In this document: positions 7,194-59,204 of the stretch, in pieces
How the letters are laid out: the number at the start of each line of letters is the position of its first letter
Position numbering within the stretch: position 1 is the first letter of the stretch
Origin: an uncultured Alphaproteobacteria bacterium
GTDB taxonomy: Bacteria; Pseudomonadota; Alphaproteobacteria; JAJFIK01
NCBI GenBank assembly: GCA_964474635.1
Contig: CAYYTT010000002.1
Span: forward strand, 6,015-70,014
Direction of reading: 5' to 3'
DNA: 64,000 nt
Program-made: the position numbers and the translations under genes
Notes under the pieces: model-generated
Databases searched by the model: none
What the model saw: the letters and a program-made list of their open reading frames with translations, nothing else
What the model was told of the DNA's origin: nothing

Positions 7194-8243
7194 GTGAGTT
7201 TCAGTGTGATGGTCAGGAAGCGAACCGTTGTCCTGCCTTTGGTGCGGACAGTCTGTGCTTTGCTGACCCTTGGCATGGTGTCGGCGTGCTCCCTCAATGG
7301 GACGCCCCCGACGGGCACCCCGCCGAAAGTCGCTCGGACCCTGCCCGTCACAAAGCAACTCATGCTGTTGCCGCCGCCGGAACGCGTGGTCGATGTGGGC
7401 GTGTACAGTTTCCCGGATCTCACGGGACAGAATAAGCCCGGCGAGAATTTCGCGAATTTCTCCAAGGCCGTCACGCAAGGCGCCTCGGCCTATTTGACCG
7501 AGGCCCTGCTGCGCGCGGGGCAAGGCAGCTGGTTCTCCGTGACCGAGCGCAGTGGCCTGAACAATCTGCTCCAGGAGCGGCGGATTATTCGAGGGACCCG
7601 CGAGGAATATGAGGGCAAGGGCAATGGCCTCCTGCCGCCCCTGCGCTTTGCCGGGATCATGCTTGAGGGCGGGGTCATTGCCTATGACTCCAATGTCCGA
7701 ACCGGCGGGATCGGGGCGCGCTGGCTCGGCATCGGGTCCGATATTCAGTATCGCCGCGATATTGTGACCGTGGCCTTGCGGGCGGTGAGTGTCAGCACGG
7801 GGAAGGTCCTTGCAGCCGTCAGCACGACGAAGACGGTGTATTCCATTGCGGCGCGGACGAATGTGTTCCGCTTCATTGCCGTCGATGAGATATTGGATGC
7901 GGATGCCGGCTTTTCGATCAATGAACCGCCCCAGCTCGCCGTGCGCCAGGCCGTTGAATTGGCGGTCTATTCCCTTGTTCTCGAAGGGGCCCTGAACGGT
8001 CTATGGTCCTTTGAAGACAAGAGGCAGGCACGCGGCATCCTGAAACGCTTCATTGAGACGCGCTATGATGGGTTCGGCCCGGGAGATCTGCTTGGCATCA
8101 ATGAAAAATTCGAACGGGCCACAAATCCGAATTTCGGCATGGCCACGGTGGAGATGCAAGGTGTTGAGGTCGTTCTGTCCTCACCCAATGGGGAGGCGTC
8201 CGCAGCAACGGTCCGAGACAACCGGCTCCCGAAATTGTTCTGA
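7194..8243 (+). CDS. csgG: Curli secretion channel lipoprotein CsgG
   Basis: Lipobox LTLGMVSAC. CsgG-family core VGVYSFPDLTGQNKP, KAVTQGASAYLTEALLRAGQGSWFSVTERSGLNNLLQERRI. GTG start at 7194, alternative ATG at 7209. Confidence 0.85.
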   Translation: MSFSVMVRKRTVVLPLVRTVCALLTLGMVSACSLNGTPPTGTPPKVARTLPVTKQLMLLPPPERVVDVGVYSFPDLTGQNKPGENFANFSKAVTQGASAYLTEALLRAGQGSWFSVTERSGLNNLLQERRIIRGTREEYEGKGNGLLPPLRFAGIMLEGGVIAYDSNVRTGGIGARWLGIGSDIQYRRDIVTVALRAVSVSTGKVLAAVSTTKTVYSIAARTNVFRFIAVDEILDADAGFSINEPPQLAVRQAVELAVYSLVLEGALNGLWSFEDKRQARGILKRFIETRYDGFGPGDLLGINEKFERATNPNFGMATVEMQGVEVVLSSPNGEASAATVRDNRLPKLF

Positions 8244-8307
8244 GCGGTCATGCCTGTCTCCTCGGTTGCTCGCGCCTGCTGCGCGGACAGCGGTTTGTTT
8301 CTTTTTG

Positions 8308-9003
8308 ATGGGCGGCGTTGGTACGGCGCAGGATCTTGTTGAAGGGCAGGATCTTGTTGACACGGACGATCTGGTGGCGACGGACGACCAAATTTCGGAT
8401 CCGGATGAATTTGGCAGCGATCCGCCTTTCTCGATCGGCGGATTGCATTTGGGGATGACCCTTGAGGAGATCGCGAGGGTCCACCCGTCCCTCTCGACAC
8501 AGAACGCCCCTTTCTCGGATGCCATCGACCGGTCAGTGCCTTTGCAAGCGGATGTGGAATCCAGTGTGGCGCGCTTTGGCTACCGGAATGTGACCTTGAA
8601 CGACGATGGGGCGGGCGCTGACCAGTCGGGGTTGACGGCGCAGTCCCTCTACCTGCCGACCGGCCTTGAAATCGCGGAGTTGACAGGGACCCTTCGCGCC
8701 ACGGGGGAGGGGGTTGTCTTCTCGATCACCTTGGAGATGGCCAGCATGATGCTCGACTGCACGGCGGTGGCTCAGGCCATGGTCCGTGACATGGGTGAGC
8801 CCACGGGACAACGCGCCGACACCGTTTTCACGTGGCGCTCCTTTACGGTCACGCGCCGTGAGACCCTCGATATGCGGTGCCAATCCGGGCAAACCCTCCT
8901 CTTGGAGCTGAGCGACCCGGGCATTTTCGAACGATTCTTACAGGGCATCGAAACAATGCGGGACGAGGCGCTTCAACGCCGTATTCCGACGCCGCGCTAT
9001 TGA
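8308..9003 (+). CDS. Hypothetical exported protein with an acidic 6-aa repeat N-terminus, directly downstream of csgG
   Basis: Frame is open from 8053 but overlaps csgG until 8243. Plausible starts are TTG 8266 (gives a signal-like LAPAARTAVCFFLMGGVGTAQ) or ATG 8308. I recognise no family. Confidence 0.5.
   Translation: MGGVGTAQDLVEGQDLVDTDDLVATDDQISDPDEFGSDPPFSIGGLHLGMTLEEIARVHPSLSTQNAPFSDAIDRSVPLQADVESSVARFGYRNVTLNDDGAGADQSGLTAQSLYLPTGLEIAELTGTLRATGEGVVFSITLEMASMMLDCTAVAQAMVRDMGEPTGQRADTVFTWRSFTVTRRETLDMRCQSGQTLLLELSDPGIFERFLQGIETMRDEALQRRIPTPRY
8329..8389 (+). repeat. 18-bp in-frame tandem repeat (about 3.4 units) encoding QDLVEG/QDLVDT/DDLVAT/DD
   Basis: CAGGATCTTGTTGAAGGG, CAGGATCTTGTTGACACG, GACGATCTGGTGGCGACG, then a partial GACGACC. 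Read directly. Confidence 0.8.
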
Positions 9004-9130
9004 AGCGGTTTGCGTTCAAAGCCCGTGCGGCGCACCGATGCCCTGGGGCATGAGAGAGAACAACAACAAGGCAATGCGGGCATTCAGATCGCCGCTTTGC
9101 CACTTGGCCAAAAGTGGTGATACCGTGAGT

Positions 9131-10114
9131 ATGCTGAAGAGTTTGATGGGGGGCAACAGATCGCGTCTTTTCTCAGTTCTCTTCGCGATTCTGCCGATTG
9201 CTCCGATTGCGGCAAGTCTGTCCGTGACGCCCGCTCCGGATGCCTCCAGTGACCAGGGCACGGGCCCGGCTCCCCAGGCGGCGCCGGCCCGCGCGCCGGG
9301 CTTTCAGGAATGCGGCGATTGCCCCCGGATGGTGGTTGTTCCGCCGGGCACCATGACCATTGGCAAATCCGGCAATCAGGGCGAGCCGGACGAACGTCCT
9401 AGCCGGGTCGTGGCCTTCTCCGCGCCCTTTGCGGTCAGCGAAACGGAGGTCACCGTTGAACAATTCGCCGCCTTCGTGAACGACACCGGATATGAGATGG
9501 GCTTGGGCTGTTGGACCTACGAAAACGATGTCTTCGCCGAACGTGTCGATCGCTCCTGGATCAATCCGGGTTATGCAAGAACCGGGGCAAGCCCGGTGAC
9601 TTGCGTGTCGTGGATCGATGCCATGACATATGCCAAATGGCTCAGTGCAAAGACCAAAGCGACCTATCGTCTTCTTTCCGAGAGCGAATGGGAATACGCG
9701 GCACGGGGCGGGCGCACGACGCCTTTCAGTTGGGGCAGCGAGCCGTCCTCATGCCGGCGCGGGGCCGTTGACGGGGCCTCGAACCGTCTGTGCGGTGGGC
9801 AGGGGCCACTCCCGGTCGGGACATTTCAACGCAATCGGTTCGGACTTTTCGACGTGCATGGCAATGTTTGGGAATGGGTTCTCGATTGCTGGAATGGGTC
9901 CTACGCAACTTTGGCCGCCAACGGTGCACCTAATGGCAATGGCGACTGTCAGCGGGCCGTTTTGCGCGGCGGCTCGTGGCTCACTTATCCCGCCGCTCAA
10001 CGCTTAGGGCTGCGCAATTGGTTGAGCCGTACGGAGCGTCAAAGCCATGTGGGATTTCGGATCCTTCGCCCCTTCTCCGCACAGGAACTAAACGCCAATC
10101 GCATCGGGTTATGA
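9131..10114 (+). CDS. Exported formylglycine-generating-enzyme family (SUMF1/EgtB/PvdO-like) domain protein
   Basis: Start at ATG 9131 gives the signal-like MLKSLMGGNRSRLFSVLFAILPIAPIAASL. FGE-sulfatase domain blocks: MVVVPPGTMTIG, ERPSRVVAFSAPFAVSETEVTVEQFAAFV, PVTCVSWIDAMTYAKWLS, YRLLSESEWEYAARGG, FGLFDVHGNVWEW, LRGGSW, GFRILR. Confidence 0.8.
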   Translation: MLKSLMGGNRSRLFSVLFAILPIAPIAASLSVTPAPDASSDQGTGPAPQAAPARAPGFQECGDCPRMVVVPPGTMTIGKSGNQGEPDERPSRVVAFSAPFAVSETEVTVEQFAAFVNDTGYEMGLGCWTYENDVFAERVDRSWINPGYARTGASPVTCVSWIDAMTYAKWLSAKTKATYRLLSESEWEYAARGGRTTPFSWGSEPSSCRRGAVDGASNRLCGGQGPLPVGTFQRNRFGLFDVHGNVWEWVLDCWNGSYATLAANGAPNGNGDCQRAVLRGGSWLTYPAAQRLGLRNWLSRTERQSHVGFRILRPFSAQELNANRIGL

Positions 10115-10179
10115 AGGGGGCAAGGGAGTTTGATAGGGGAAGTCTGGTAGGGGGAGTTTGATAAGGCGACGTGGGCCCG

Positions 10180-10890
10180 TCACACCCTGAGTGATTGGAG
10201 CAAAAACGTCGCCAATTCGCTTTGCCGCGATGTCCCGGTTTTGGCAAACAAGGAACGCAATTGCGTACGGATTGTGGTCGCGGCGACATTCCGATGTTGA
10301 GCGATCTCAGCGACGCTGGACCCCTTCAGCAAGAGACGACCAAGTTCCAGTTCACTGGATGTAAAAGAAAAAAGTGTTTTCCAATGATTACAGTATGAGA
10401 TATCAATTTTATTCATTCTGCAGATGGAAATTTGCAATCCTCCGATGTCACCGTCTTTTATCACAAAGCAAAAGGATGCAAGTGCGTTTAGTCCTTTGTC
10501 CCGTATAGAAATATAATGGGGTGCGGGGAATTTCTTTAATTCCTTTGGTCCTTGAATAATATCTCGAATTTTGGACTCAAAAGATGGAATTTGAAAATCA
10601 ATGACTCCAGACGGCGTGCTGGACCAAATTTTTTTATTTAAGCTATCACTCAATGCTTGCCTATTCGCCATCAGAATTTTTCTGTCTCTTCTGATCCAAA
10701 TCCGGGAAATGGATTGATGATCTTCAATTACAGGAAAAGACCAGGTCTGATCAGAATTGACCAGCATATCGCCGGCAGAGTCGCTTATATCAAGAGAGTA
10801 GCATTCATGATTGGATGAAAATGCAGGAGATCCTTTCTTGCTCTTCAAAGGTTGTTTTTTGCGAGAGTATTTTTCCCCCTGAACGCTCAT
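10180..10890 (-). CDS. LuxR/FixJ-family HTH transcriptional regulator with an unassigned N-terminal domain, in an AT-rich gene
   Basis: C-terminal GerE/LuxR HTH (SSELELGRLLLKGSSVAEIAQHRNVAATTIRTQLRSLFAKTGTSRQSELATFLL). I prefer ATG 10890 because of the strong SD (CAAGGGGAGAAAAATG). The ORF is open to GTG 11043. Confidence 0.75.
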   Translation of the reverse strand: MSVQGEKYSRKKQPLKSKKGSPAFSSNHECYSLDISDSAGDMLVNSDQTWSFPVIEDHQSISRIWIRRDRKILMANRQALSDSLNKKIWSSTPSGVIDFQIPSFESKIRDIIQGPKELKKFPAPHYISIRDKGLNALASFCFVIKDGDIGGLQISICRMNKIDISYCNHWKTLFSFTSSELELGRLLLKGSSVAEIAQHRNVAATTIRTQLRSLFAKTGTSRQSELATFLLQSLRV

Positions 10891-11285
10891 TTTTCTCCCC
10901 TTGAACGAAGCGCCGGCAAATTTATGGCTCGATATGTAAAAAGCGATGAACACGGTTCGCATCTTTTCCGGGCGATTTTCAATATAATTGGTATATGGAT
11001 AAGGACGGTCAAGAAAAAAGTAAAACCCGCCGCGAAGTGCCACTCTTATAAGTAATACCGGCCACCTTCATTTTTCAAAAATAGTGACACTGAAGACCGG
11101 TGCCGGACGTTAGACTGTTCTGTGGTAAGAGGAAATGGCAGCGAATGGTGCTCCCGAAAACCACGTAGTCCGGCGAATTTCAGACGCTCTGCGTCTAATT
11201 CGAAGCATCGTGTATTTCAAAGCACCGGGAAAAAGTGGCGTTCGGCCGAAAAAATAAGTCTTTATACTGACTGCAGTATGGTTTC

Positions 11286-11774
11286 TCACTCCCGGTGATA
11301 CGGGTGGCCTGCTAAAATTGTTGCGGCGCGGTATATCTGCTCAAGGACCATCACGCGGGCGAGCATATGGGGCCAGGTGGCCGCTCCGAAGCTCACTGTG
11401 AGGTCGGCGTCCTCGCGCAAATCCGGGTCGAGGCCGGCGGCCCCGCCAATGAGGAGCGTCGTGGCCGGCGAGCCCTGGTCGCGCCAGGCGGCGATGCGCT
11501 CGGCGAAACCTTTGGAGGGCAGGGGGGCGCCCCGTTCATCAAGGGCAATGACTTTGCCGCCGGGCACGAGGGCCTTGCGCAGCTTGTCTGCTTCGCCGGC
11601 CTTGGCCTCGCGCGAGCCGGGTTTTGCCCCCCCGCCGTCCTCCCATTCCATCACCTCAAGGGGCTTTAGTCCGAGCGGGCGGGCGAGCGCGTCGAAGCGG
11701 GTGCGGTAATCTTCACATAGACTGCGTTCAGGCGACCGGCGCATCCGGCCGATCGCCGCCACAATAAGTTTCAC
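11286..11774 (-). CDS. rlmH: 23S rRNA (pseudouridine1915-N3)-methyltransferase RlmH (SPOUT)
   Basis: MKLIVAAIGRMRRSPE, KVIALDERG, TLLIGGAAGL, SFGAATWPHMLARVMVLEQIYRAATILAGHPYHRE. Typical size of 162 aa. Confidence 0.9.
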   Translation of the reverse strand: MKLIVAAIGRMRRSPERSLCEDYRTRFDALARPLGLKPLEVMEWEDGGGAKPGSREAKAGEADKLRKALVPGGKVIALDERGAPLPSKGFAERIAAWRDQGSPATTLLIGGAAGLDPDLREDADLTVSFGAATWPHMLARVMVLEQIYRAATILAGHPYHRE

Positions 11775-11916
11775 AATGAATTCCCATGCCGACCGGAGGT
11801 GGCAGGCGCAAGCACAGCATCACGGGCCCGCCGGTGCCGGGCGATTCAGGGACCCACCGCGCACGGTTTTAACGCCGAGCAACGGACGCCCAACGCAAAC
11901 CGCCGTGCCCAAGGCA

Positions 11917-12372
11917 TCAGGACGCGGTGCGCGCGGCCTCCACACCCCAGATCTTCTCAAGATTGTAGAATTCGCGCACCTCGGGGCGGAACAGGTGGAC
12001 GATCACATCGCCCACATCGATCAGCACCCAGTCGCAATGGGGCAAGCCCTCAACCTGCACGGTCCCAAGACCAGCGTCTTTAAGATTCCGGGCAAGGCGA
12101 TCGGCAATGGCGCCCACATGGCGATGGGAGCGGCCGGAAGCGATGACCATATAATCGGCCACGCTTGATTTGCCGGTCAGATCAATGGTCACCAGATCCT
12201 CAGCCTTATCATCGTCGAGGGAGGTGAGGATCAGATCCTTTAATCCCGCTCCCGAAGGCGCCGCCTTCTCAGGAGCTGGGGGTCTATCGTCGCCGGGTGC
12301 GGCGCGATTCAGAGTGGCAAGGCTCAGAGTTCCGGTCCTCTCGCTTGGGCATCTTGCACCGAGATGCATCAA
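11917..12372 (-). CDS. rsfS: Ribosome silencing factor RsfS (Iojap-like)
   Basis: LILTSLDDDKAEDLVTIDLTGKSSVADYMVIASGRSHRHVGAIADRL, DWVLIDVGDVIVHLFRPEVREFYNLEKIW. The N-terminal extension and start are uncertain. Confidence 0.85.
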   Translation of the reverse strand: MMHLGARCPSERTGTLSLATLNRAAPGDDRPPAPEKAAPSGAGLKDLILTSLDDDKAEDLVTIDLTGKSSVADYMVIASGRSHRHVGAIADRLARNLKDAGLGTVQVEGLPHCDWVLIDVGDVIVHLFRPEVREFYNLEKIWGVEAARTAS

Positions 12373-12453
12373 ACCACATGGGACGATAGCATAGGTGCCG
12401 GTTTATGAAAATCACCGTCGGTCCCGCACCGTTCCAACCAGGGGAGCCACACC

Positions 12454-13482
12454 ATGCCCGAGCGCGCAAACACTGATGTTGCCGCCTATGGGGGCCGTTT
12501 TGCCGAGGATGTGCTGCCCTTTTTGGAACCGGGGCGGGCGCTCATTTCGCTTGTGGGAATCGAGGGATCCACACCCCGGCCGTTGGGCGCGCAGATGGTT
12601 GTCGCGCCGGCAAACCCCGCGAGAGGCGAGAGCGATGGCGCCAGTCCCTTAAGTGTCGGTCCATGGGGCGGCGAGGGCGTATGGGGCTATCTGACGGGCG
12701 GCTGCGTCGAAGAGGCCATCGTGACCGAGGCGCGCCAGGCCCTGGCCGAGGGCACCAACCGGCGCCAACGCTATGGCGCCGGCTCGCCCTACCGCGACCT
12801 TGTGCTGCCCTGCGGCAGCGCCGTCGAGCTGTTCTTCGATGTGGGGGTGGACCCGGCCACCGTGACGGCGCTGAAGGCGGCGCGTGATGAACGCCGGGCC
12901 GTTGCCACACGGACGGATTTTGCCGCCCTGCGCTCGGCCCGCCTCGTGGCCGATCCGGCCGGCGAAGGGATATCGGCGAGCAGTTGCGAGAACGGCCAGC
13001 TGCTGCGCCTGCACACACCGCCTTTGCGGCTGGTCATGGCGGGGGCTGGCCCGGTTTGTTTGTTTCTGGGCCGTTTTGCGCGCGAAGCGGGGATGGAGGT
13101 GAGCCTGCTGACCCCGGACGCGGTGACGGCGGATTTGGCACACGGCATGACTGTCCGGCGATTGACGAGCCCGCGCGAGCCCCTCGACCTGGGCGCTGAT
13201 CCGTGGACGGCCATTGCGGTGCTGTTCCACGACCACGACTGGGAACCCGTGGTGCTGCAGGCGGCCTTGGCCTCGACGGCCTGCTATATCGGCGCCATGG
13301 GCAGCGCCCGCACCCACGCCGCCCGCCTTGCCACGCTGGAGGCGCTGGGCGTCGCGTCGCAAGAGGCCGCGCGCATCAAGGGCCCGGCCGGGGTGACCTC
13401 CGGCGCGCGGTCGGCGCCGGAGATCGCGTTGTCAATCCTCACGGAAATTCAGTATGAGGCACGGCAAGGCGCCCAAATGTAA
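12454..13482 (+). CDS. XdhC/CoxI-family molybdenum-cofactor insertion accessory protein
   Basis: N-terminal XdhC_CoxI block (LISLVGIEGSTPRPLGAQMVV, GYLTGGCVE). C-terminal Rossmann block (LVMAGAGPVCLFLGRFAREAGMEVSLLTPD, YIGAMGSARTHAARL). Confidence 0.75.
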   Translation: MPERANTDVAAYGGRFAEDVLPFLEPGRALISLVGIEGSTPRPLGAQMVVAPANPARGESDGASPLSVGPWGGEGVWGYLTGGCVEEAIVTEARQALAEGTNRRQRYGAGSPYRDLVLPCGSAVELFFDVGVDPATVTALKAARDERRAVATRTDFAALRSARLVADPAGEGISASSCENGQLLRLHTPPLRLVMAGAGPVCLFLGRFAREAGMEVSLLTPDAVTADLAHGMTVRRLTSPREPLDLGADPWTAIAVLFHDHDWEPVVLQAALASTACYIGAMGSARTHAARLATLEALGVASQEAARIKGPAGVTSGARSAPEIALSILTEIQYEARQGAQM

Positions 13483-13517
13483 GGGCCCCTGCCGCCGCCG
13501 CACAAAAATCGACCCGC

Positions 13518-14645
13518 TTAGGAGTCGAATTCGGCGATGATCCGCACAAAGCGGTTCACCTGGGATTTAACCCCGTCCGCCGTGGTCAGGCGAAGAGCGC
13601 TTTCACCCTTAGGCTGAAGGGTGATGTTCCGGTCGGGCACCCCCCGGCTGATCAGGCCGGCGCGCACCGCTTCGGCCCGTGCCCGCGACAGGCGCAGATT
13701 ATAAGCCGGATTGCCGGATGAGTCCGTGTGACCTTCCAGGATGATCGACTTGACGTTCCGCTGACGGATCACGATCGCGGCGGCATCAAGCACTTTGTCC
13801 GCCTCCGCATTGAGGCTGGAGCTGTTGAAGTCGAAAAAGACGAGTTCGAGCAGTTCCCGGTCCGGAACTTCCGGTGCCGGCGGCGGCGGAGGCGTGGGCG
13901 CCGGCGCGGGCGGCGGGGCCGGTTGCGGCTCGGGCTGGGCCGTGCGCACGGGCGGCAGGTCCTGTCGAGGCGAGGAGCGCTGTCCGCCAAGGGTGTAGCG
14001 CAGGCCTGCCAGGAAGGCGTGGTTGGCAAACTCGCCCTCGCCGGACGGCCCGAAATCGTAATCGCCGGCAGATATATAACGGTAGCGGGTTTCGATGGCG
14101 ACCGTGTCGGTCAGGTCCGCCGCGATGCCGGTCGTGCCCTGCCAGGCGAACTTCACATCGGAGTCCGAGGGGCCCGCGCCGCCCATGCCGGCCAACGTGT
14201 AGTCCGGGGTGAGGCGGGCGAGACCCACACCGAAGCCCACAAAGGGACGGATGTTTTGAAACGGTGTGAAATCCCGATAGATCGAGGTGAATGCCGTCAG
14301 GGCATTCAGGTCACCCGCCGCGGCAAAGCCGCCGCTCGCCCCCAAAACGTCCTGGGACGTGTAGCCCACGCTCACCTCCGCGCGGGTCTTCGGTAAAAAG
14401 TAGTAGCCGGCCGCGCCGTCGACGGCCCAGGAGCCATCCACATCCACTGTGCTTGCCGGGCCGCCGGTGACATCGCTGTCGAAGCCGAGGACATAGCCGC
14501 CTTCGAGTTTGAGATATGTGGCGCCTTCCGCCGTGGCGGCCTCGCTGCGCGGGTCCCCCGCCTGGGCAGGAGCGGACAGGGCGAGAAACGCGCAGCCCAT
14601 CATGACTGCACGCAGCCCCGGAGGTGGTGTGTTGAGCCGGTTCAT
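13518..14645 (-). CDS. OmpA-family outer membrane protein: beta-barrel N-domain, Pro-rich linker, OmpA_C peptidoglycan-binding domain
   Basis: Signal peptide. Barrel-like alternating strands ending in RYTLG. Linker PEPQPAPPPAPAPTPPPPPAPEVP. OmpA_C block FFDFNSSSLNAEADKVLD, LEGHTDSSGNPAYNLRLSRARAEAV. Confidence 0.85.
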   Translation of the reverse strand: MNRLNTPPPGLRAVMMGCAFLALSAPAQAGDPRSEAATAEGATYLKLEGGYVLGFDSDVTGGPASTVDVDGSWAVDGAAGYYFLPKTRAEVSVGYTSQDVLGASGGFAAAGDLNALTAFTSIYRDFTPFQNIRPFVGFGVGLARLTPDYTLAGMGGAGPSDSDVKFAWQGTTGIAADLTDTVAIETRYRYISAGDYDFGPSGEGEFANHAFLAGLRYTLGGQRSSPRQDLPPVRTAQPEPQPAPPPAPAPTPPPPPAPEVPDRELLELVFFDFNSSSLNAEADKVLDAAAIVIRQRNVKSIILEGHTDSSGNPAYNLRLSRARAEAVRAGLISRGVPDRNITLQPKGESALRLTTADGVKSQVNRFVRIIAEFDS

Positions 14646-19065: not shown

Positions 19066-19758
19066 ATGACGGATCCAATTTCAAGTCTTACTGCCCAGAC
19101 AACAGCCGGGGCACGGAGCACCGATGGGCGCTCGGGGACGTCTTCCCCTGGCAATCCGCTCCTCGACAATGAGGACTTTTCGACCTTTCTCGGCCTCCTG
19201 ACCGCGCAACTCCAATACCAGGACCCCATGGATCCCATGAACACGGATCAATTCGTGACCCAGCTTACCCAGTTCAGTCAGTTGGAACAGAGTGTCCGGG
19301 GCAACGATACGTTGGATGCCATCCGTGCGGACCTGGCGGGGCGCGGCGTTCAATCGGACGTGTCCCTGATTGGCCGGTCCGTCTTGACGGCGAGTAACGA
19401 GATCATTCTGGGTAAGGATGGCGCGACCATACGTTTTGAAGACGTCCCGGCGGGCGAGACGGTCGAGGTCCAGATTTCGGACGGGAATGGTGAGGCCGTC
19501 TCGACGTTTCCCGTCACGGCGACGCAGGGTGAAACTGTGGTGGAATGGTCCGGACGCACTGCTTCCGGTGACCAGATTGCGGAAGGGACGTATAAGGTGG
19601 ACCTGCGCCGCAAAGGTGTGGATGGCGCAGGTACCAGCCCTGTTCAGCCGTTGACCTTTGCCGCCGTCACCGAAGTGCGCCTTGTCGGCGGCACCGCCGA
19701 GCTTGTCCTCGACGGCGGCCTTCGCATCCCCGCATCCGAGGTCAGAGCGGTCCGCTAG
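19066..19758 (+). CDS. flgD: Flagellar hook capping/assembly protein FlgD
   Basis: FSTFLGLLTAQLQYQDPMDPMNTDQFVTQLTQFSQLEQ signature plus a C-terminal FlgD Ig-like region. Confidence 0.92.
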   Translation: MTDPISSLTAQTTAGARSTDGRSGTSSPGNPLLDNEDFSTFLGLLTAQLQYQDPMDPMNTDQFVTQLTQFSQLEQSVRGNDTLDAIRADLAGRGVQSDVSLIGRSVLTASNEIILGKDGATIRFEDVPAGETVEVQISDGNGEAVSTFPVTATQGETVVEWSGRTASGDQIAEGTYKVDLRRKGVDGAGTSPVQPLTFAAVTEVRLVGGTAELVLDGGLRIPASEVRAVR

Positions 19759-20212
19759 AGGGTTCCTGGAGCAAAAGCCGGTCAAAAAGGACGGCCGTGA
19801 TCGGGACAGTGTCTTGATACACCGTTTCCAGGTGACGTTTGAGATCGTCCCCCAGATCTTTCGGCGAAACGCTTCCCTTTGCGAACCTGCCTTTCGCTGA
19901 AAGATCGAATAACCCTTCCAGAAGGGCATGCCGCAGCACAGGACGGGACAGGGCGAGGGTCCGGTTGCCCTTACTCTCCGGCGGCACAGCAAGATTGATT
20001 TCCGCAAGGAGCAAGGCGTCGAACCCACCGCCCGGACCCGCCACAGGCACCACGAATTGACCGGCGGGCACGATGATACTGCGCGACAGGGCCGGGGCAA
20101 GGTCTGTTTCCACAGCGTTGGCCGGCGCCAAGTGTCGGCCTGTCATGAAACCATAAGCGGCACCAGTCAAGCCTAGTACCAAGCAGAGAGCCACAATATG
20201 GAAAAGACGCAT
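19742..20212 (-). CDS. fliL: FliL-family flagellar basal-body-associated protein (paralog 1)
   Basis: Start at ATG 20212 after GGAGA. Single N-terminal TM (MRLFHIVALCLVLGLTGAAYGF). FliL-like C-terminus (ITAVLFDRLLLQE). Sits after flgH, as in Rhizobiales clusters. Confidence 0.65.
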   Translation of the reverse strand: MRLFHIVALCLVLGLTGAAYGFMTGRHLAPANAVETDLAPALSRSIIVPAGQFVVPVAGPGGGFDALLLAEINLAVPPESKGNRTLALSRPVLRHALLEGLFDLSAKGRFAKGSVSPKDLGDDLKRHLETVYQDTVPITAVLFDRLLLQEPSSGPL

Positions 20213-23308: not shown

Positions 23309-23429
23309 GGTTTTCGACTCCCCTCCAGGCTTGACATTGTCTGATTTGAACTCGGCCTTAAACTAGGCGAGCTAGATTAAACCCGCGTTTCTATTCACGG
23401 GCGCAAATAAAAACGAGTTTTTCGGAAAA

Positions 23430-24986
23430 GTGGGGGCAACTTTGCTTCGAATTGTTCTTTTCGCGGTCTGTCTGGTCGGTACCAGTGCAGTGGGCGCGCC
23501 GCAGGCTGGCATGGCGGCCGATCTTCCCTGTCCGGACATGGTGGGTCTCCTGGCGTCCGGATCGCCGGACGGCAACGCGCGGCAGGCGCCCTTTACGCAA
23601 ACGCTAAAGGCTCTTGTTGGATCATCAGCACACCGCTTTGTAGATCATGAGCCTGACCCCGCGGTACAGGGTGACCGCGCTGTCCTGAAGGCCGCGGCCC
23701 ATTATGCTGCCCACGGGCTTTTTCAAGAAGTCCACGGGCTAAGACGCGGGATCGAGCCGGCTTGTGCAAATGCCAACTGGTTGCTGGGGGCTTCCCTCAT
23801 TGCGGCCGGCGCGCCGGCGGCCCAACGAGACCTTGAAATGCGGGCGGAGGCGGGGGATGGGGCCGCCGCCCTGTGGTTGATTTTGGGCATGTCGATCCGG
23901 ACCAAGAGTGCTCTTGGACCCTCTGGATTTCAGGCCGCGGCCCCGCATCTGGCGGATCTTCCGGTCACCTTGCGCGATGCGGGGCGCCTCCATCTTGCCT
24001 TCGCGGCCGCACAGGAGGGCGAAACGCAATTTGCAAAACGGCTTGTGGAGCAGTCGCCCTCACCGTCCGCGCGGGCCATCGCTTTGACCGGGGCCTTTGC
24101 GCTGAACAGTCTCCAGTCTCTTGTCGCTGGGATGCTTGCGGAGCATGCCGGCGCGTTCGATGCGGCCAAGGGCCATTATGACGCCGCCATCGCATCCGGC
24201 GGACGGCCCGGCGCGGAAGCGGCCTTGCGCTGTGCCAATCTGCTTTGGCAGGAAACACCGGAACTCTTGCCACAAACCATCCAGCGCCTGGAGGACCTGC
24301 GCTGGGCCTGGCGCGGCGATGAGGTGGAAGCGCGCACGCTGCTGACCTTGATCCGCGCCTATTCCCTGCGGGGGAACGACACCATCGCTTTGGATCTGGC
24401 GGTGACCTTTGCCGCCCGGTTTCCCGAACGCGCCGATCGGGCACGGACAATCATTGATGCCATTGTGGAAACCAAATTCGTAAAGGCGCCGGAGACAGAG
24501 CAGGACACTCTGATGCGGTTTGAAGGGCTTGCCCGTCTCATGCGCCGGGGGGCGTCCGAGACGTCAGGCTCCGGGTCGGTCAGGCAGGCTTTGCAGATAC
24601 TGTCCGAAACATATCATCTGCCAACGGATCTGGTGACTTATGGGGCCGCGGTCGCACCGGTTCGTTTAGCATTGCGGGGGTTAAAGGGCACGAGCACCGC
24701 CCAAAGCCCATCCCTCGAAACCCAAGAGTACGAGCCCCTCACGGGGCATACCGAGAAGCCAGGTGCGGTCGTTGATGCAACCGATCTGCCGCAACGGGAC
24801 AAAATGCTCCTCTCACTGCTCAATATTCCCGATGCTCCGGACGTCCCCGCGGCGGATGAAGAAAGGGGTTTGAGCGCCATCGATAGGGCTTTGCAGTACA
24901 GCCGGAACCTTGAAACCCTGGTCCGTGTCCATCTCTCGGGCCGTCTGAACGCGAGCACCACCCCAGAAGGAGGAGAAGGTCCATGA
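23430..24986 (+). CDS. Hypothetical exported Ala-rich helical-repeat protein, translationally coupled to motA (candidate MotC-like stator accessory)
   Basis: GTG start. Signal-like MGATLLRIVLFAVCLVGTSAVGAPQAG. 518 aa. Its stop overlaps the motA ATG (ATGA at 24983-24986). I recognise no family motif. Confidence 0.5.
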   Translation: MGATLLRIVLFAVCLVGTSAVGAPQAGMAADLPCPDMVGLLASGSPDGNARQAPFTQTLKALVGSSAHRFVDHEPDPAVQGDRAVLKAAAHYAAHGLFQEVHGLRRGIEPACANANWLLGASLIAAGAPAAQRDLEMRAEAGDGAAALWLILGMSIRTKSALGPSGFQAAAPHLADLPVTLRDAGRLHLAFAAAQEGETQFAKRLVEQSPSPSARAIALTGAFALNSLQSLVAGMLAEHAGAFDAAKGHYDAAIASGGRPGAEAALRCANLLWQETPELLPQTIQRLEDLRWAWRGDEVEARTLLTLIRAYSLRGNDTIALDLAVTFAARFPERADRARTIIDAIVETKFVKAPETEQDTLMRFEGLARLMRRGASETSGSGSVRQALQILSETYHLPTDLVTYGAAVAPVRLALRGLKGTSTAQSPSLETQEYEPLTGHTEKPGAVVDATDLPQRDKMLLSLLNIPDAPDVPAADEERGLSAIDRALQYSRNLETLVRVHLSGRLNASTTPEGGEGP

Positions 24987-25867
24987 GACCGGTTTTGGGC
25001 ATGACCATCGTCATTGCAAGTATCTTGGGGGGATATGCGGCCCTGGGAGGAAATCTTGGCGTGTTGTGGAACCCTTTCGAAATCCTGATCATTTGTGGGT
25101 CGGCATTCGGGGCCTTTGTCATCGCCAACCCTGCAAAACTCTTAACGGATACGGCCTCCGGCCTCGATCAGTTGCGCCGGGGTCGGCGGTTCAAGAAGCA
25201 GGACTATCTCGATCTTTTGTCCCTCCTGTTTGCGATCGTCAAGCAGGCCAGAACCCGCGGCCTTATGCAGCTTGAAAAGGATATCGAAAATCCATCCGAA
25301 AGTGCCTTGTTTGCCCAATATCCAAGCGTCATGGCGCACAAAAAGGGTCTTACGTTTCTAACCGACTATCTTCGCTTGATGTCTCTTGGTACGGAGAAAA
25401 GCTTTGAAATCGAAACCCTCATGGATGAGGAAATCGAAGTCATTGCGCGGGAGCGCACCAAAGCACCAAAGGCATTGAAGGCCCTGGGCGAAAGTTTACC
25501 CGCCCTTGGAATTGTCGCCGCCGTCCTCGGTGTCATCAAGGCCATGTCCGCTCTCAATCAGCCGCCGGATATTCTTGGCGCGCTGATCGCGGGGGCATTG
25601 GTGGGAACCTTCCTGGGTGTCCTGCTGTCCTACGGGCTGGTCAGCCCCCTCGCCATGGCTATTCGGGCCGATCGGGAGGACGAGTTGATGTATTTCCAGT
25701 GTATTCGCTCCGGCCTCGGCGCATATTTGCGCGGCGATCCGCCCCAAATCTGCGTGGAGTTTGCCCGGAAAGTCTTGCCCGAAAGCGCGCAGCCCCAATT
25801 CGATGAGGTCGAGGCAGCGATCAAGACAACCACACTTGCCAATCAGAGCGCCGCCACGGCCGCCTGA
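24983..25867 (+). CDS. motA: Flagellar stator protein MotA (set 1)
   Basis: 294 aa. MRPVLGMTIVIASILGGYAALGGNLGVLWNPFEILIICG, ALGIVAAVLGVIKAM and ALVGTFLGVLLSYGLVSPLA blocks. Confidence 0.92.
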   Translation: MRPVLGMTIVIASILGGYAALGGNLGVLWNPFEILIICGSAFGAFVIANPAKLLTDTASGLDQLRRGRRFKKQDYLDLLSLLFAIVKQARTRGLMQLEKDIENPSESALFAQYPSVMAHKKGLTFLTDYLRLMSLGTEKSFEIETLMDEEIEVIARERTKAPKALKALGESLPALGIVAAVLGVIKAMSALNQPPDILGALIAGALVGTFLGVLLSYGLVSPLAMAIRADREDELMYFQCIRSGLGAYLRGDPPQICVEFARKVLPESAQPQFDEVEAAIKTTTLANQSAATAA

Positions 25868-25896: not shown

Positions 25897-26760
25897 ATGA
25901 CCAAACCAGATCGGCCCGTTTTGGTCCGCCGCCGGAAAGTCCTGCTCGACACCCAGGACGAGGATGGTGGTGGAAGTTGGAAAATCGCCTATGCGGATTT
26001 TACCACCGCAATGATGGCACTCTTTATCGTGCTATGGCTCACATCCATCACGTCCGAAGAGCAACGCGATAAGCTGGCTGAGTTTTTCAATCCCATATCG
26101 GTCTCCCGATCCCATTCGGGCAGCGATGCGGTGCTCAACGGCCGAACAATCGATACGGAGGGTGCGCTCGATAAGGCTGCGCAAGAGACCAAGGCGTCAG
26201 CGCAGCAAAATGGGGGTGCTCCTGATGCCGATCGGCAACCCGGATGGTTGCCCGGTGATGCGCCGGGCGCTTCGCAACTGGCCGAACGCCTGGCCCAGGC
26301 GCTCCGGCAGAACGCCTCCCTAGCGGGCCTCGCGGACCAAGTGCGCATGGCCGTGGACGGGGACCGTCTGTCTGTCAGCATTCTTGATTCGCCCTCCGTG
26401 TCCATGTTCCAGGTGGGCAGTGCGGACCTGGCGCCGGAGGCTGAAACTCTCATCGGGACCATTGCCGAAACCCTTATGGCCGGATCCGGAATGATCCGGA
26501 TCGAGGGGCATACGGATGGGCGGACCTTCCCGCGCGGAGCCCGGTATTCCAATTGGGAATTGTCCGGTGACCGGGCGAACACGGCACGCCGTGCCCTCGA
26601 ACGGGCTGGTTTCCCCGCCGAGCGCATTGACCGGGTCGAGGGGTATGCGGACCGAATGCTGCTAAACCCTGAGGATCCGCTGCAGGATCAAAATCGGCGG
26701 GTCGTCATTCATCTTTATGGGCCTAAGGGCGCGGCACGTCCTTCCCTGTTGCCGGATTAA
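25897..26760 (+). CDS. motB: Flagellar stator protein MotB (set 1)
   Basis: GGGSWKIAYADFTTAMMALFIVLWL plug/TM with the conserved Asp. C-terminal OmpA-like block (IEGHTDGRTFPRGARYSNWELSGDRANTARRAL). Confidence 0.92.
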   Translation: MTKPDRPVLVRRRKVLLDTQDEDGGGSWKIAYADFTTAMMALFIVLWLTSITSEEQRDKLAEFFNPISVSRSHSGSDAVLNGRTIDTEGALDKAAQETKASAQQNGGAPDADRQPGWLPGDAPGASQLAERLAQALRQNASLAGLADQVRMAVDGDRLSVSILDSPSVSMFQVGSADLAPEAETLIGTIAETLMAGSGMIRIEGHTDGRTFPRGARYSNWELSGDRANTARRALERAGFPAERIDRVEGYADRMLLNPEDPLQDQNRRVVIHLYGPKGAARPSLLPD

Positions 26761-30975: not shown

Positions 30976-31689
30976 CTATGCGACGGCACGTGACCGCTCG
31001 GCCACAGCCCCCAGATGGGCGAGTCGATATCCCCGCCCCACAACGGTTTCGATGAAACGCTCCCCTTGCGTTGCATCGGCAAGTTTGCGTCGCAGTTTGC
31101 AGATGTAAACATCAATGACCTTGTCGAAGGGCTGTGACCCGGTGAGGCCATAGACCGCCTCGAACAGGGTTTCTTTGGAAATCACGCGGCCCTGACGATG
31201 GGCAAGGGCCATGAATGTACTGTGCTCGCGGCGGCTGAGTTTGATGGGTCGTCCGTTCACCTCTGGATCCCGGCCGTCCAGGAAGATGGTCAGTGGTCCC
31301 AAGTCGAAGGTCTCGTCACGCTGCTCCGTTCCCCGGCGCCGAATGGCACGAATGCGGGCGGCAATTTCCTTGGCCTTGACCGGGCGAATGAGGCAATCAT
31401 CGGCGCCAGCGTCGAGCAGACGGACGATTTTGTCCGACTGGCGAAGATCAAGAAAACACAAGATCGGCAGGCCCGGTGCATTTTTTCGGGCCCGCGCCAC
31501 CATCAACGCGGTCTCCTCTTCATCCCCAAGGAGAATGGCCAAATAGGGTGAGGGGGCCGTTCCCGTCCATGGCGGGGCATCGTCCAAATGCGAAAGCTCG
31601 GCCCGGTCAATGTCGATACGGATGGCTTTGAACGCCGTTGTCAGACTGTTCGCAATTAGATCGTCCGATTCCACCAGAAGTATACGCAT
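30976..31689 (-). CDS. OmpR-family winged-helix response regulator with an atypical receiver (Rem/FtcR-like flagellar regulator candidate)
   Basis: ATG 31689 gives MRILLVESDD. Trans_reg_C block LSRREHSTFMALAHRQGRVISKETLFEAVYG, DVYICKLRRKL, IETVVGRGYRL. The receiver lacks the usual T/S and the K of the KP motif (reads LIRPV). Confidence 0.7.
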   Translation of the reverse strand: MRILLVESDDLIANSLTTAFKAIRIDIDRAELSHLDDAPPWTGTAPSPYLAILLGDEEETALMVARARKNAPGLPILCFLDLRQSDKIVRLLDAGADDCLIRPVKAKEIAARIRAIRRRGTEQRDETFDLGPLTIFLDGRDPEVNGRPIKLSRREHSTFMALAHRQGRVISKETLFEAVYGLTGSQPFDKVIDVYICKLRRKLADATQGERFIETVVGRGYRLAHLGAVAERSRAVA

Positions 31690-31952
31690 CCATATCACCC
31701 AATTTGAGAAAAACGGACCAAGTGGAGGTACTTGAGTGTTGGGACGGCACGAATAACGCACGGCCAGCAAAAAGAGTGTAGTCCGGATACAGCAAATATT
31801 GATTGAATATGGATAAAATCACGTACGGGTAGGTGTTTGATTGATTTGTTGAAAATCCCAGTGTAAGCGATGAGAGAAGTGCAAGGCCCTCCGGCATAGC
31901 ATCCCTTGCCATGAGCGAACCGCTTCACGTCGCCATTAACAAGGGTGGGTTC

Positions 31953-44316: not shown

Positions 44317-45012
44317 TCACGTGGGCTTGGGGCGGTGACGTTCCGCAAAGACCTGCATGACGGCCCGCGCGAGGTCCACGGGCAGGTTGGAGAGAATGGG
44401 TGCCGCGCGGCGATCGGGCATGCGGTCAAGAACCTGCACGATGATTGCCACATCCATGGATTTCAGAATATCCGCGGCGGCCTTGGGCTTCATCGTTTCA
44501 TACAGCGAGCGCATCCGCTCGATATCTTCGTCGGCCTTGGCATCAAGGGTCGTCAGAAGGCCTTCTATATCCTGGCGCAGGGTCCTCAGTTCACGCACAT
44601 GGGTGTCGGCCCGAAGGATTGCGGCGTCCGCGAGTGCGCGCTTTTCGGCAATGGTTTGGGCCTCGGCGGCGAGGCGCTGCCGTTCCTTTTCAAGGGCTCT
44701 CATGGTCTCGATGGGGGCCACATAGGCGTTGGCGATGGCCGCATCGAGCGTGTCGAGAAACGAGCACTGCGGGGCGGTCCCTGCCTCGGGGTCGGGCCCT
44801 TTGGTCCCTGGATCCGTATGCGCTCCATCGGCGGTTGCGTCCTTCAGCAGGTCCCGCGCCCAGGGTCGGTCATGGGTGCCGAATTCCGTTGCCGCGCGAC
44901 GGGCGGTACGCGCCGTATCCGTTTCGGACCGGGCGATCACGTCGCCAGCCTTGCCGAGCGACAGGGCCGCAAGACTGACGGCCGCAAGGGACATCAAGCG
45001 TTTGGGCATCAT
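44317..45012 (-). CDS. motE: MotE/FlbB-like protein with an MgtE_N-like domain (periplasmic, signal peptide)
   Basis: MMPKRLMSLAAVSLAALSLG signal, a coiled coil, then MKPKAAADILKSMDVAIIVQVLDRMPDRRAAPILSNLPVDLARAVM. Confidence 0.65.
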   Translation of the reverse strand: MMPKRLMSLAAVSLAALSLGKAGDVIARSETDTARTARRAATEFGTHDRPWARDLLKDATADGAHTDPGTKGPDPEAGTAPQCSFLDTLDAAIANAYVAPIETMRALEKERQRLAAEAQTIAEKRALADAAILRADTHVRELRTLRQDIEGLLTTLDAKADEDIERMRSLYETMKPKAAADILKSMDVAIIVQVLDRMPDRRAAPILSNLPVDLARAVMQVFAERHRPKPT

Positions 45013-45662
45013 GGACGGGCTCCCCCATCGGTTCCTGTCATCGGCGCTGGATCATCGTCCGTATCACGAGCAGTATAGTTGCGCATGGACGCGAGGAGTT
45101 CCTGGACATCCGGCCGGCCGGCGGCCGATGGCGCGGGCGGCACCCATCGGCGCAAAGGCCCGTCGCGCGGCGGTGAAAATGACGTGACGGCAGCCTCACG
45201 TGATGCCGGGTCAGACAGGGGGGCGCCAGACAGGGGTGCGCCAGACAGGGGCGCGCCAGGTGTGGGCGCGGGTGGCTTGGGCGCGATGGACGCCGGAGAC
45301 GGGGAGGGCGCCGGCTCCTCGGCCAGAAGCTCCGGATTGGCTCGCGCCGCATCGCTGGAGGCCGCGCGCAGGCGGCGTTCCGCGCGGCGGCAATGGGCAA
45401 GCAGGACCCGAAGTTCCCGGTTCTGGCGGGCACAGGCCTCCATGGATTGCTCCAGGGTCTGGCCCACGGTCTCACCGGCGGTCCGCATACGATCAAAGAG
45501 CGTCTGTGAGGCGTCGACCTGGGCCGAGAAATCCTGAAGCAGGCCACGCATGGCCCCGAAACTCACCTGCATTCTGCGCAAACGTCGTTCAACGCGCAAA
45601 ATCTGCCAAATGAGCGCCATGATGACGAATACGATCAGTCCGTCGAAGATAAGGGCCATCAT
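45009..45662 (-). CDS. Hypothetical membrane-anchored coiled-coil protein with a Pro-rich, repeat-containing tail (flagellar operon member)
   Basis: N-terminal TM MMALIFDGLIVFVIMALIWQIL. Helical middle. PSPSPASIAPKPPAPTPGAPLSGAPLSGAPLS tail. 4-nt overlaps with fliM upstream and the motE-like gene downstream. Confidence 0.55.
   Translation of the reverse strand: MMALIFDGLIVFVIMALIWQILRVERRLRRMQVSFGAMRGLLQDFSAQVDASQTLFDRMRTAGETVGQTLEQSMEACARQNRELRVLLAHCRRAERRLRAASSDAARANPELLAEEPAPSPSPASIAPKPPAPTPGAPLSGAPLSGAPLSDPASREAAVTSFSPPRDGPLRRWVPPAPSAAGRPDVQELLASMRNYTARDTDDDPAPMTGTDGGARP
45212..45260. repeat. 15-bp in-frame tandem repeat x 3.3 (CAGACAGGGGNGCGC on the plus strand) encoding GAPLS x 3
   Basis: Read directly inside CDS 45009..45662. 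Confidence 0.9.
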
Positions 45663-51156: not shown

Positions 51157-52182
51157 ATGGGAGCGATCAAGATACGCGATAACTACCATGCCCTGACCGG
51201 GCCGGAAAAGGCGGCCATCATGTTCCTGACCATCGGCGAGGATCGTTCCTCCTCCATGATGGAACGGCTCGAAGAGGATGAAATCCGGATCGTGTCCCGG
51301 GCCATGGCGGGGCTCGGCACCATCACCGCGCCCCTGCTTGAGGAACTGATTTCCCAATTCACCGAACGTATGGCCCGGGGCGGCGCCGTCATCGGCAACT
51401 TTGACAGTGCCGAGCGCATGCTGAGCAGCTTCATGCCCAAGGACCGCGTCGCGGATATTATGAACTATATCCGGGGCCCCGGCGGGCGGTCCGCCTGGGA
51501 GCGGATGTCCAATGTCAACGAGACCCTGCTCGCCAAATATCTGCAAGGGGAGCATGAGCAAACCATCGCCGTTGTCCTGTCGAAGATCGCCCCGGACCAT
51601 GCGGCCAAGGTGCTGCCCTTGCTGCCAAGACCGCTCGTGCGCGACGTGATCCGGCGCATGGTGTCGCTCCAATCGGTGTCCCAGGAGATCCTGGCGGATA
51701 TCGAGGAAATGCTGCACCGGGAACTGATGATCGATTATGCCCAGAGCCGCGGCGGTGACACCCACGAGCACCTGGCCGAGGTGTTCAACAGGACCGGCCA
51801 GGACCTCCTGCAGGATTTGATGACCGATTTGGAGGAGGATGATCCGGAGGCCGTCGGCCGCATCAAGCAGCTGATGTTTACTTTTGAGGATCTGGTTGAA
51901 CTCGACCCCATCTCGCTTGGCACCGTCATTCGCTCCTGCGACACGGATCTGTTGGTCTACGCCCTGAAGGCCTGTGATGAGGAAACGCGGCAGATTTTCC
52001 TGTCCCACATGTCCCAAAGGGCTGGTGCAATCCTGATCGAGACGACCGAAAGCCTTGGTCCCGTGCTCAGCCGTGACGTGGAGGCGGCGAAGACGGCGAT
52101 CGTGCGCAAGGCTAAGGAACTGGCCGAGGCCGGAACGATTGTGATCCAGCGCGATGGCGAGGGGGACGGCATCATCTATTGA
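51157..52182 (+). CDS. fliG: Flagellar motor switch protein FliG (set 1)
   Basis: LTGPEKAAIMFLTIGEDRSSSMMERLEEDEI, LQGEHEQTIAVVLSKI, MFTFEDLVELD, C-terminal torque helix region. Confidence 0.93.
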   Translation: MGAIKIRDNYHALTGPEKAAIMFLTIGEDRSSSMMERLEEDEIRIVSRAMAGLGTITAPLLEELISQFTERMARGGAVIGNFDSAERMLSSFMPKDRVADIMNYIRGPGGRSAWERMSNVNETLLAKYLQGEHEQTIAVVLSKIAPDHAAKVLPLLPRPLVRDVIRRMVSLQSVSQEILADIEEMLHRELMIDYAQSRGGDTHEHLAEVFNRTGQDLLQDLMTDLEEDDPEAVGRIKQLMFTFEDLVELDPISLGTVIRSCDTDLLVYALKACDEETRQIFLSHMSQRAGAILIETTESLGPVLSRDVEAAKTAIVRKAKELAEAGTIVIQRDGEGDGIIY

Positions 52183-52205
52183 GGGCCGCCGGGCTTGCCA
52201 CACGT

Positions 52206-52233
52206 CCCGGGGTGCCGTGCGGCACGCCCGGGG
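52206..52233. terminator. GC-rich imperfect hairpin in the 59-nt convergent spacer between fliG (set 1) and flhG (set 2)
   Basis: CCCGGGGTGCCG .. CGGCACGCCCGGGG with one bulged G. No clear U-tract on either strand. Confidence 0.3.
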
Positions 52234-52241
52234 CTCTTGGC

Positions 52242-54376: not shown

Positions 54377-54397
54377 GGATGCCGGTCCCCTTCAGGC

Positions 54398-56518: not shown

Positions 56519-56560
56519 CGTGGTGTTGTCCTTTGTCCGCCCTTGCGTGGTCTGCCGGGA

Positions 56561-57949: not shown

Positions 57950-57967
57950 GGTTCTGCTCCTCAAAAA

Positions 57968-58831: not shown

Positions 58832-59181
58832 ATGCCGCCCTTGACGATTTCGGTCATGGTAATCCCCAGGCGTTCCTCCACAAGCACCACTTCGCCGCGG
58901 GCGACCAGGCGGTCATTCACATAGATGTCGATGGCCTCACCGACCTTGCGATCCAGTTCCACGACGGCGCCCCGTCCGAGTTTCAGCAATTGACTGACTT
59001 CCATTTCCGTCTTGCCCAAGATGGCCGAAACCCGCACCGGTATGTCGTAAACGGCCTCAAGATCCGTTGCCGTCTTTTTGATATCGGCGCCTTCGGACTC
59101 CGCCTCGCTTTGGTCAGGTTCGGGAACCGGCTCGCCTTCCGGGTCCAGTTCCGGCAAGTCCACATTATCCCCGTCCGCCAT
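58828..59181 (-). CDS. fliN: Flagellar motor switch protein FliN (set 2)
   Basis: IPVRVSAILGKTEMEVSQLLKLGRGAVVELDRKVGEAIDIYVNDRLVARGEVVLVEERLGITMTEI. Confidence 0.92.
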   Translation of the reverse strand: MADGDNVDLPELDPEGEPVPEPDQSEAESEGADIKKTATDLEAVYDIPVRVSAILGKTEMEVSQLLKLGRGAVVELDRKVGEAIDIYVNDRLVARGEVVLVEERLGITMTEIVKGGI

Positions 59182-59204
59182 GATGTCCTCGATCGCTCCT
59201 CATG

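Follow-up and report, generated by a model that had tools for sequence, protein, structure and literature searches.

What is the protein encoded directly upstream of motA in the flagellar cluster of an uncultured alphaproteobacterium, and does it act on the stator? The window analysed here is a stretch of 64,000 nucleotides (nt) from assembly GCA_964474635.1 (contig CAYYTT010000002.1, positions 6,015 to 70,014), and the gene in question, ORF518, is listed among its open reading frames (ORFs) as a GTG-initiated frame of 518 amino acids (aa) at 23430..24986 on the plus strand. The first-pass annotation of the window saw in it either the counterpart of Sinorhizobium MotC or an unrelated, new periplasmic stator partner. 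Our finding is that ORF518 belongs to a type of flagellar motor accessory described only recently, of which it is a new variant, fast-evolving and reduced in its domains. The explanation that we consider probable, though well short of assured, is that its product would be a Sec-exported, shortened homologue of the PflA/MotK/FssB class of scaffolds, reduced to tetratricopeptide repeats (TPRs), which serves the flagellar set of the window, the second set of this genome, as a link between the MotE ring and MotB without which the motor does not turn. The large periplasmic scaffolds of this class help flagellar motors to retain and activate their torque-generating units.

This reading is carried by homology to a family of much longer proteins. 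A phmmer search of 1.84 billion representatives with ORF518 as query gave 21 proteins at E<=1e-3, two of them being ORF518 itself and an orthologue, and the 19 distant matches cover residues ~75–390. By BLASTP, 15 of the 19 match a 1167-aa protein of this same genome; two more, P0007 and P0022, match the alignment of the long family (A4) by hhalign (100% and 98.4%), which places 17 of the 19 in the long family, while the remaining two, P0005 and P0014, are repeat proteins of other kinds. In whole genomes, the matches to the same region of ORF518 lie in ORFs of 983–1386 aa, which are no arbitrary set of TPR proteins. When the alignment of the ORF518 family (A1) is compared by hhalign with the 14 long-family members in A4, the probability is 99.6% (E 4e-24 over 301 columns), and ORF518 residues 29–343 align to residues ~572–878 of 1144. 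The motif LE.LR..WRGD[DE].E is common to both families and is aligned in this comparison. In A1, this block has its invariant columns between L287 and E300 of ORF518; in the long family the consensus reads LE.LR..WRGDD.E, with W828, R829 and E834 invariant and G830 and D831 nearly so. In the opposite direction, a tblastn search of the window with the long protein finds a sole match, at 24117–24473 and thus within ORF518 (E 3e-6).

What, then, is the long family? The AlphaFold2 (AF2) model of the long protein, with a predicted local distance difference test score (pLDDT) of 80, shows an N-terminal signal or transmembrane helix, beta domains at residues 57–147, 209–301 and 360–551, and a solenoid at 582–1137. 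Its best Foldseek match is 9hmf_K, a chain of 773 residues in the periplasmic scaffold of Campylobacter jejuni (882 columns, E 5e-12, with 8e-8 for the runner-up), which from its length and architecture we take to be PflA. The long protein is encoded in alphaproteobacterial flagellar clusters: of nine genomes with listed positions for motE and for the ORF518-like segment, eight have the segment 2–5 kilobases (kb) downstream of motE, in the same orientation. Judged by this synteny, by its architecture and by the PflA match, the long family (~1000–1400 aa) appears to be the counterpart of MotK and of FssB (CC_2058). A search for MotK by context (motE-motA-large ORF) in 30 motE loci, whose flanks are short, showed MotK in none.

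ORF518 is homologous to the TPR domain of this class, and therefore it is not a new stator accessory in kind. The idea of a periplasmic stator partner stands, as a functional proposal, on the hhalign result and the gene context; the suggestion that the protein is unrelated to known accessories, or new in kind, does not. Nor is it a full member of the long family, since its own model contains no strand and its residue 29 aligns at the start of the solenoid, after the beta domains; it is a domain-reduced variant. Its product consists of a predicted signal peptide that runs straight into the first solenoid half, followed by about 60 helical residues, a disordered linker and C-terminal helices. 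The AF2 model behind this layout was built on a three-row alignment; it is all-helical, with a mean pLDDT of 56.9, residues 120–400 reaching 70–89 and residues 14–116 staying below 50. With low confidence, it places the C-terminal helices at residues 455–464, 474–490 and 494–508, and in this part I484, L488, Q489, S491, L494 and T496–V498 are invariant in the ORF518 family.

Domain libraries are silent on ORF518. A comparison with TPR and Sel1 families had been suggested as a check, and the Pfam scan, which includes the TPR/Sel1 repeat models, gives no match at E<=1; the same holds for the NCBIfam scan and for a profile search of PDB sequences at that threshold. The fold matches of the ORF518 model are generic, 9hmf not being among its best 50, and in the ESM Atlas it finds clusters that are unnamed or labelled TPR only, with a recognition value below the Atlas's own mark. 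A predicted complex of ORF518 (residues 30–518) with MotE (25–231) scored 0.00, which is no answer and is evidence neither way. One long-family match deserves mention in its own right: P0022, a protein of 559 aa from another source, has a signal-like N-terminus, the same first solenoid half and WPQDD in place of WRGDD, and it is a second, independent short form.

The product of ORF518 appears to be exported. Its single hydrophobic segment is N-terminal, the best 12-mer being residues 5–16 with a mean Kyte–Doolittle (KD) hydropathy of 2.9, and a hydropathy scan of the full protein finds no further 19-mer with KD >1.6 outside the N-terminus. The -3/-1 rule is satisfied between residues 29 and 30. 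The signal call comes from such sequence rules (hydropathy, -3/-1) and from the alignment of three orthologues; the rules for a Sec signal are satisfied in 3/3, and two Cys are invariant in the mature part. The database form of the protein (P0002) has 491 aa and begins at Met28, so that the signal-like segment is cut off; the GTG start is favoured because both orthologues open with an aligned hydrophobic N-terminus. The earlier description of a GTG-initiated, Ala/Leu-rich helical protein of 518 aa with a signal-like N-terminus is thus borne out by the ORF listing, hydropathy, composition (Ala 17.2%, Leu 12.9%) and the AF2 model.

How the gene is tied to the stator genes was also read correctly. 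The ORF ends ...GGT CCA TGA, and its stop codon (24984–24986) overlaps the motA ATG (24983–24985) by 4 nt as ATGA; a GGAGG at 24969–24973 stands 10 nt 5′ of the motA start. By this arrangement the synthesis of ORF518 is coupled to that of motA-motB. The gene that follows motA is indeed motB. Upstream, no sigma-70-like site was found in the divergent interval between flgF and ORF518 (the whole scanned stretch holds two sites against 2.3 expected from shuffles), and in the promoter and terminator scan the number of sites was not above that of shuffled sequence. The features of the locus are collected in Table 1.

Table 1. Features of ORF518 and of the associated stator and motE genes (positions in the window).
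Feature	Position	Strand	Basis or remark
ORF518, short TPR protein, probably exported, of the PflA/MotK/FssB scaffold class	23430..24986	+	first gene of the ORF518-motA-motB operon
Signal-peptide-like N-terminus, residues 1–29	23430..23516	+	rule-based; likely cleavage between GMA and A, aligned with AWA/D and AEA/A in the orthologues
Divergent intergenic region between flgF (-) and ORF518	23309..23429		read directly; presumed site of the promoters for the two operons
Region homologous to the first half of the long-family TPR solenoid, residues 29–343	23514..24458	+	hhalign
Motif LEDLRWAWRGDEVE, residues 287–300	24288..24329	+	best-conserved block of the short and long families
Ser/Thr/Pro/Glu-rich stretch, residues 404–452, predicted disordered	24639..24785	+	pLDDT <50, no secondary structure; gapped, poorly conserved
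Conserved C-terminal helices, residues 455–508	24792..24953	+	outside the hhalign match; no long-family counterpart found
Coupling signal: AAGGAGGAGAAGG within the ORF518 3′ end, then the ATGA stop/start overlap	24967..24986	+	sequence read
motA of the window set	24983..25867	+	TIGR03818 355 bits (cut-off 304); Pfam MotA_N, MotA_ExbB
motB of the window set: plug region, conserved Asp in ...AYADFTTAMMALF..., OmpA-like domain	25897..26760	+	MotB_plug E 1.6e-15, OmpA E 1.3e-14
motE, MotE/FlgY family (COG3334-type), expected partner of ORF518	44317..45012	-	last gene of the run fliL-fliM-(217-aa membrane protein)-motE

How widespread is this gene? Among ~5.8 billion protein clusters two relatives were found besides ORF518 itself, P0003 (45% identity) and P0004 (40%). 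P0003 is the product of a gene of the congener G003 whose neighbours are those of ORF518 and which likewise overlaps motA by 4 nt (ORF 7831..9474 and motA from 9471 in locus L011); the ATGA overlap is kept in both of the genomes whose DNA was readable, this one and G003. No additional full-length relative was found in 41 relatives, 12 genomes of the order and 401 of the class, and full-length genes are present in two of the 12 genomes of the order. A search of genome contigs for related loci matched 49 pattern stretches and confirmed none. An upstream ORF that overlaps motA occurs in two of 48 motA loci (this genome and G003), and BLASTP of ORF518 against all ORFs of these 48 loci matches the same two alone. 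The nearest relatives of the window MotA (47–54% identity), viewed in context in G027, G012 and G183, are encoded in isolated motAB pairs beside housekeeping genes.

Such rarity raises the question whether ORF518 has a motor role at all. A long scaffold gene could have been duplicated, and ORF518 could be what is left of one copy, in decay or neutral; or it could be a periplasmic TPR protein of unrelated origin. The ~520 N-terminal residues and the second solenoid half of the long form are gone, the protein diverges much faster than its neighbours (its DNA gives no alignment between this genome and G003), and three family sequences are all that were found in the clusters. Against these points, the three orthologues at 40–45% identity keep near-equal lengths (518, 535 and 529 aa), the signal-like N-terminus, the two Cys and >150 invariant columns in A1; the frame is open, with a G+C content at third codon positions of 0.66 that resembles neighbouring genes; and the motA overlap is conserved. 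Moreover, the window set has a MotE and, by tblastn with the long protein, no scaffold-family member other than ORF518. On balance we regard decay, or the lack of any role in the motor, as quite improbable.

The specific suggestion that ORF518 is MotC fares worse. Its appeal lies in the outline, since MotC likewise has a Sec signal, an all-helical, Ala-rich chain with no beta domain, a place beside the stator genes and a MotE in the genome. MotC also aligns, although weakly, with the long family in the part that ORF518 matches: hhalign of MotC against the long family gives 42.8% (E 2.5e-4), with MotC 111–322 against long-family residues 711–967, around the motif region, which is no more than suggestive. 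The NCBIfam MotC model, NF009442 (PRK12798), found one MotC in 201 genomes of the class, in the motB-motC-fliK operon of G099, where it stands in a run of motB, motC and the next gene. The family drawn from that protein comprises 289 proteins at E<=1e-10, of which 27 of the 120 listed were aligned. Against this material ORF518 gives a best BLASTP E of 0.008 over 51 residues (with the G099 protein), and its family A1 an hhalign probability of 0.2% (with the 27 aligned proteins). NCBIfam returns nothing for ORF518 at E<=1, and NF009442 itself finds no match in this genome, a result that is weak alone since the model also matched 0/14 control genomes. At the position of the motif ORF518 has the long-family WRGD where MotC has APGT. 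Therefore, ORF518 is not a detectable MotC, and that it is nevertheless the orthologue of Sinorhizobium MotC seems to us very improbable indeed.

The surroundings of ORF518 are flagellar throughout. The window holds, at ~17–52 kb, a full alphaproteobacterial flagellar set. It opens with flgH-A-G-F on the minus strand, followed by ORF518-motA-motB-flgE-flgK-flgL, a gene for a CtrA-like regulator, flgI and a flagellin gene; it continues with fliI, flgC, fliQ, flhA, fliR and flhB, then motE, a 217-aa gene, fliM and fliL on the minus strand; and it ends with fliF, fliH, fliN, fliP and fliG. The MotE-like gene reported earlier is real, but it lies on the minus strand: its product matches MgtE_N (E 1.7e-5; 25.7 bits, just below the cut-off of 25.9), the match to FlbB is weak, and its orthologue P0148 carries the NCBI name "MotE family protein". 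The link that had been drawn between ORF518 and MotE is apt, given that a MotE orthologue is encoded on the same contig as the ORF518 gene in all three genomes (3/3) that bear it.

A rival reading is that of a protein that is periplasmic and flagellar and does not act on the stator. ORF518 could be a TPR chaperone or an assembly factor (for the rod, the P and L rings or the E-ring), or a positioning factor, its adjacency to motA reflecting only a shared timing of expression. TPR domains are general protein-binding scaffolds, and the generic fold matches of ORF518 fit that description; relations of the chaperone type exist in the system, MotE having been described first as a chaperone of MotC (PMC13023049); and ORF518 stands head-to-head with flgF-flgG-flgA-flgH. 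The studied or proposed members of the class speak otherwise, since loss of MotK, FssB or MotC is described as leaving cells flagellated and paralysed (PMC10954123, PMC7885107, PMC13023049), and the 4-nt overlap with motA, kept in both readable genomes, points to the stator as well. We hold a function of this sort, away from the stator, to be unlikely.

Several genes of the window set call for brief comment. An OmpR-type regulator at 30976–31770 (minus strand) has as its best match the CtrA model, with 129 bits against a cut-off of 350; Pfam detects in it the DNA-binding domain alone, and thus its receiver-like N-terminus is divergent. The 217-aa protein between fliM and motE (45009–45662, minus strand) has an N-terminal membrane helix, a proline-rich tail and no Pfam match. 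Its gene occupies the position of the DUF6468 gene in the other cluster of this genome and that of pflI in Cereibacter sphaeroides. Downstream of flgH, a 339-aa ORF (19081–20100, minus strand) is 42% conserved in G003, but its Arg-rich translation looks non-genic.

The genome carries more than one flagellar system. Adjoining the complete set, the segment of 52.2–62.7 kb (52242–62696, minus strand) is part of a different set, with fliF, fliG, a 216-aa gene, fliN, a gene of the MotA/ExbB family (57968–58831) and a sigma-54 activator, and further a second flhA (706 aa), an SRP54-type GTPase gene (FlhF-like) and a MinD/ParA-type ATPase gene (FlhG-like). Because two sets adjoin, FlhA, FliF, FliG and the MotA family are each represented by two genes in the window. 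An 823-aa ORF in this segment (53195–55666, plus strand), which was suspected of being a MotK-like gene, was rejected as an antisense artefact over flhF and flhA with an Arg/Gly/His-rich translation; likewise, the 343-aa ORF at 52179–53210 (plus strand) is an Arg/Gly/His-rich antisense artefact over flhG and no gene.

The other cluster of the genome has the order flgH-A-G-F and, beyond these, fliL-fliM-DUF6468-motE-198 aa-261 aa-1167 aa, the last being the long scaffold gene. Here motE and the three genes after it are in the 9491–14277 stretch of G000:C16:18000-37000; the 261-aa ORF gives a weak MotB_plug match, and no motA is nearby. A separate MotE and a separate scaffold homologue are encoded in each flagellar set of this genome. 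In this genome (G000) and in the congener G003 alike, MotA occurs in two types and the scaffold gene in a long and a short version. In three other congeners only the other MotA type was seen, and a window-type FlgE was not found in them. One of these three, G001, has only the fliI-to-fliG half of a window-type set, whose edge is also an end of the contig, with 57–95% identity in 17 genes and a 48% match to an unnamed 158-aa ORF. Window-type motA, flgE and ORF518 were not found in the G001 assembly, which is 95% complete; the missing half of the set is lost or unassembled.

It is tempting to combine the two sets, the motA overlap and the rate of divergence in a more specific proposal. ORF518 could be a minimal spoke borne by the stator itself: made in step with MotA through the overlap, it would travel with the MotAB unit instead of being seated in the motor beforehand, dock only on the MotE ring of its own set and so sort stator types between two motors, its fast divergence reflecting co-evolution with its own MotE and MotB. 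We consider this possible, though on the unlikely side. With two flagellar sets that do not share their MotE or their scaffold homologue, the genome makes the sorting of stators between motors testable in any case.

The reading that we prefer is that of a shortened scaffold. After export, ORF518 would bind MotE, the E-ring protein, and the periplasmic part of MotB; this binding may recruit, hold or activate the MotAB stator units of its own motor; and loss of the protein would be expected to leave cells that are flagellated and, for that set, paralysed. MotK of the C. sphaeroides Fla2 system is described as binding MotE and MotB2, and its loss as paralysing the Fla2 flagella (PMC10954123). A form that consists of TPRs only is plausible, since PflA that has been deprived of its beta-sandwich is still present in the motor, according to PMC12222027 as a vestigial spoke.

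Several points weigh against this preference. The model of ORF518 is poor. The motE gene of the window is 19 kb from ORF518 and on the opposite strand. ORF518 is among the fastest-evolving genes of the locus, with 45% identity to its G003 orthologue against 64–94% for eleven flanking flagellar genes. It has no AMIN or other beta domain, the proposed anchor of MotK to peptidoglycan, and since it keeps the half of the solenoid that is outer in PflA, the part that contacts the E-ring may be missing or may have been replaced by the C-terminal helices. Finally, the identity of the long family as MotK/FssB, on which the class assignment draws, comes from synteny, architecture and the match to PflA.

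Why would such a small protein matter? PflA, MotK, FssB, MotC and FlcB, the TPR proteins that partner the E-ring protein in the periplasm, were grouped only in 2024–2026. ORF518 is a natural minimal form, made up of a predicted signal peptide, one solenoid half and a short tail, in which the WRGD is kept and the beta/AMIN domains are dropped. Should rotation depend on it, it shows which part of the large scaffolds suffices and would be a handy construct for work on MotE and MotB binding and on structure; if it is dispensable, the finding reduces to a correction of annotation. It is also a case, at the level of sequence, of a long scaffold shrinking to the TPR-only layout that MotC has, which supports the proposal that MotC originated in the same way.

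How does ORF518 compare with the systems described so far? A review pairs MotE, FlgY and FlbB with the TPR partners MotC, MotK, PflA and FlcB (PMC13023049). MotK is described as a periplasmic protein of 652 aa in which a TPR-like region comes after an AMIN-like N-terminus (PMC10954123), and FssB of Caulobacter crescentus as having a Sec signal and a TPR domain, its deletion giving flagellated, non-motile cells (PMC7885107); both are reported to be required for rotation and not for assembly (PMC10954123, PMC7885107). With the long scaffold, ORF518 shares the homologous region at residues 29–343, the WRGD motif, a Sec-like N-terminus, a TPR-like solenoid and a position in an operon with stator genes, within a flagellar cluster equipped with a MotE of its own. 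The two differ in that the long scaffold has three beta regions, whereas ORF518 has none, keeps the first solenoid half and adds a linker and C-terminal helices of its own; and ORF518 lies upstream of motA and overlaps it, while the long form lies downstream of motE, motA or motB.

PflA of C. jejuni and Helicobacter pylori resembles ORF518 by way of the long homologue, whose best solved match, 9hmf_K, has the length expected of mature PflA. The 9HMF entry is the model of Drobnic et al., in which PflA is described as a beta-sandwich and a spoke of 16 TPRs whose C-terminal end points toward the motor axis (PMC12222027), and PflA is reported to work with the E-ring protein FlgY (PMC12222027, PMC13023049). 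ORF518 differs in having roughly half as many TPR-like helices, and 9hmf falls outside its own best matches.

MotC of Sinorhizobium meliloti, which is reported to bind and depend on MotE and to be needed for rotation (PMC13023049), is like ORF518 an exported, all-helical protein of TPR type with a short layout that lacks beta domains, encoded beside stator genes in a genome with MotE. Yet no sequence or profile similarity between the two is detectable; MotC is shorter (~390–430 aa), differs at the motif, and follows motB (motB-motC-fliK/motD), while ORF518 precedes motA (ORF518-motA-motB-flgE). Thus, having no beta domain and yet being homologous to the long family, ORF518 is like MotC in outline and of the long-family type in sequence.

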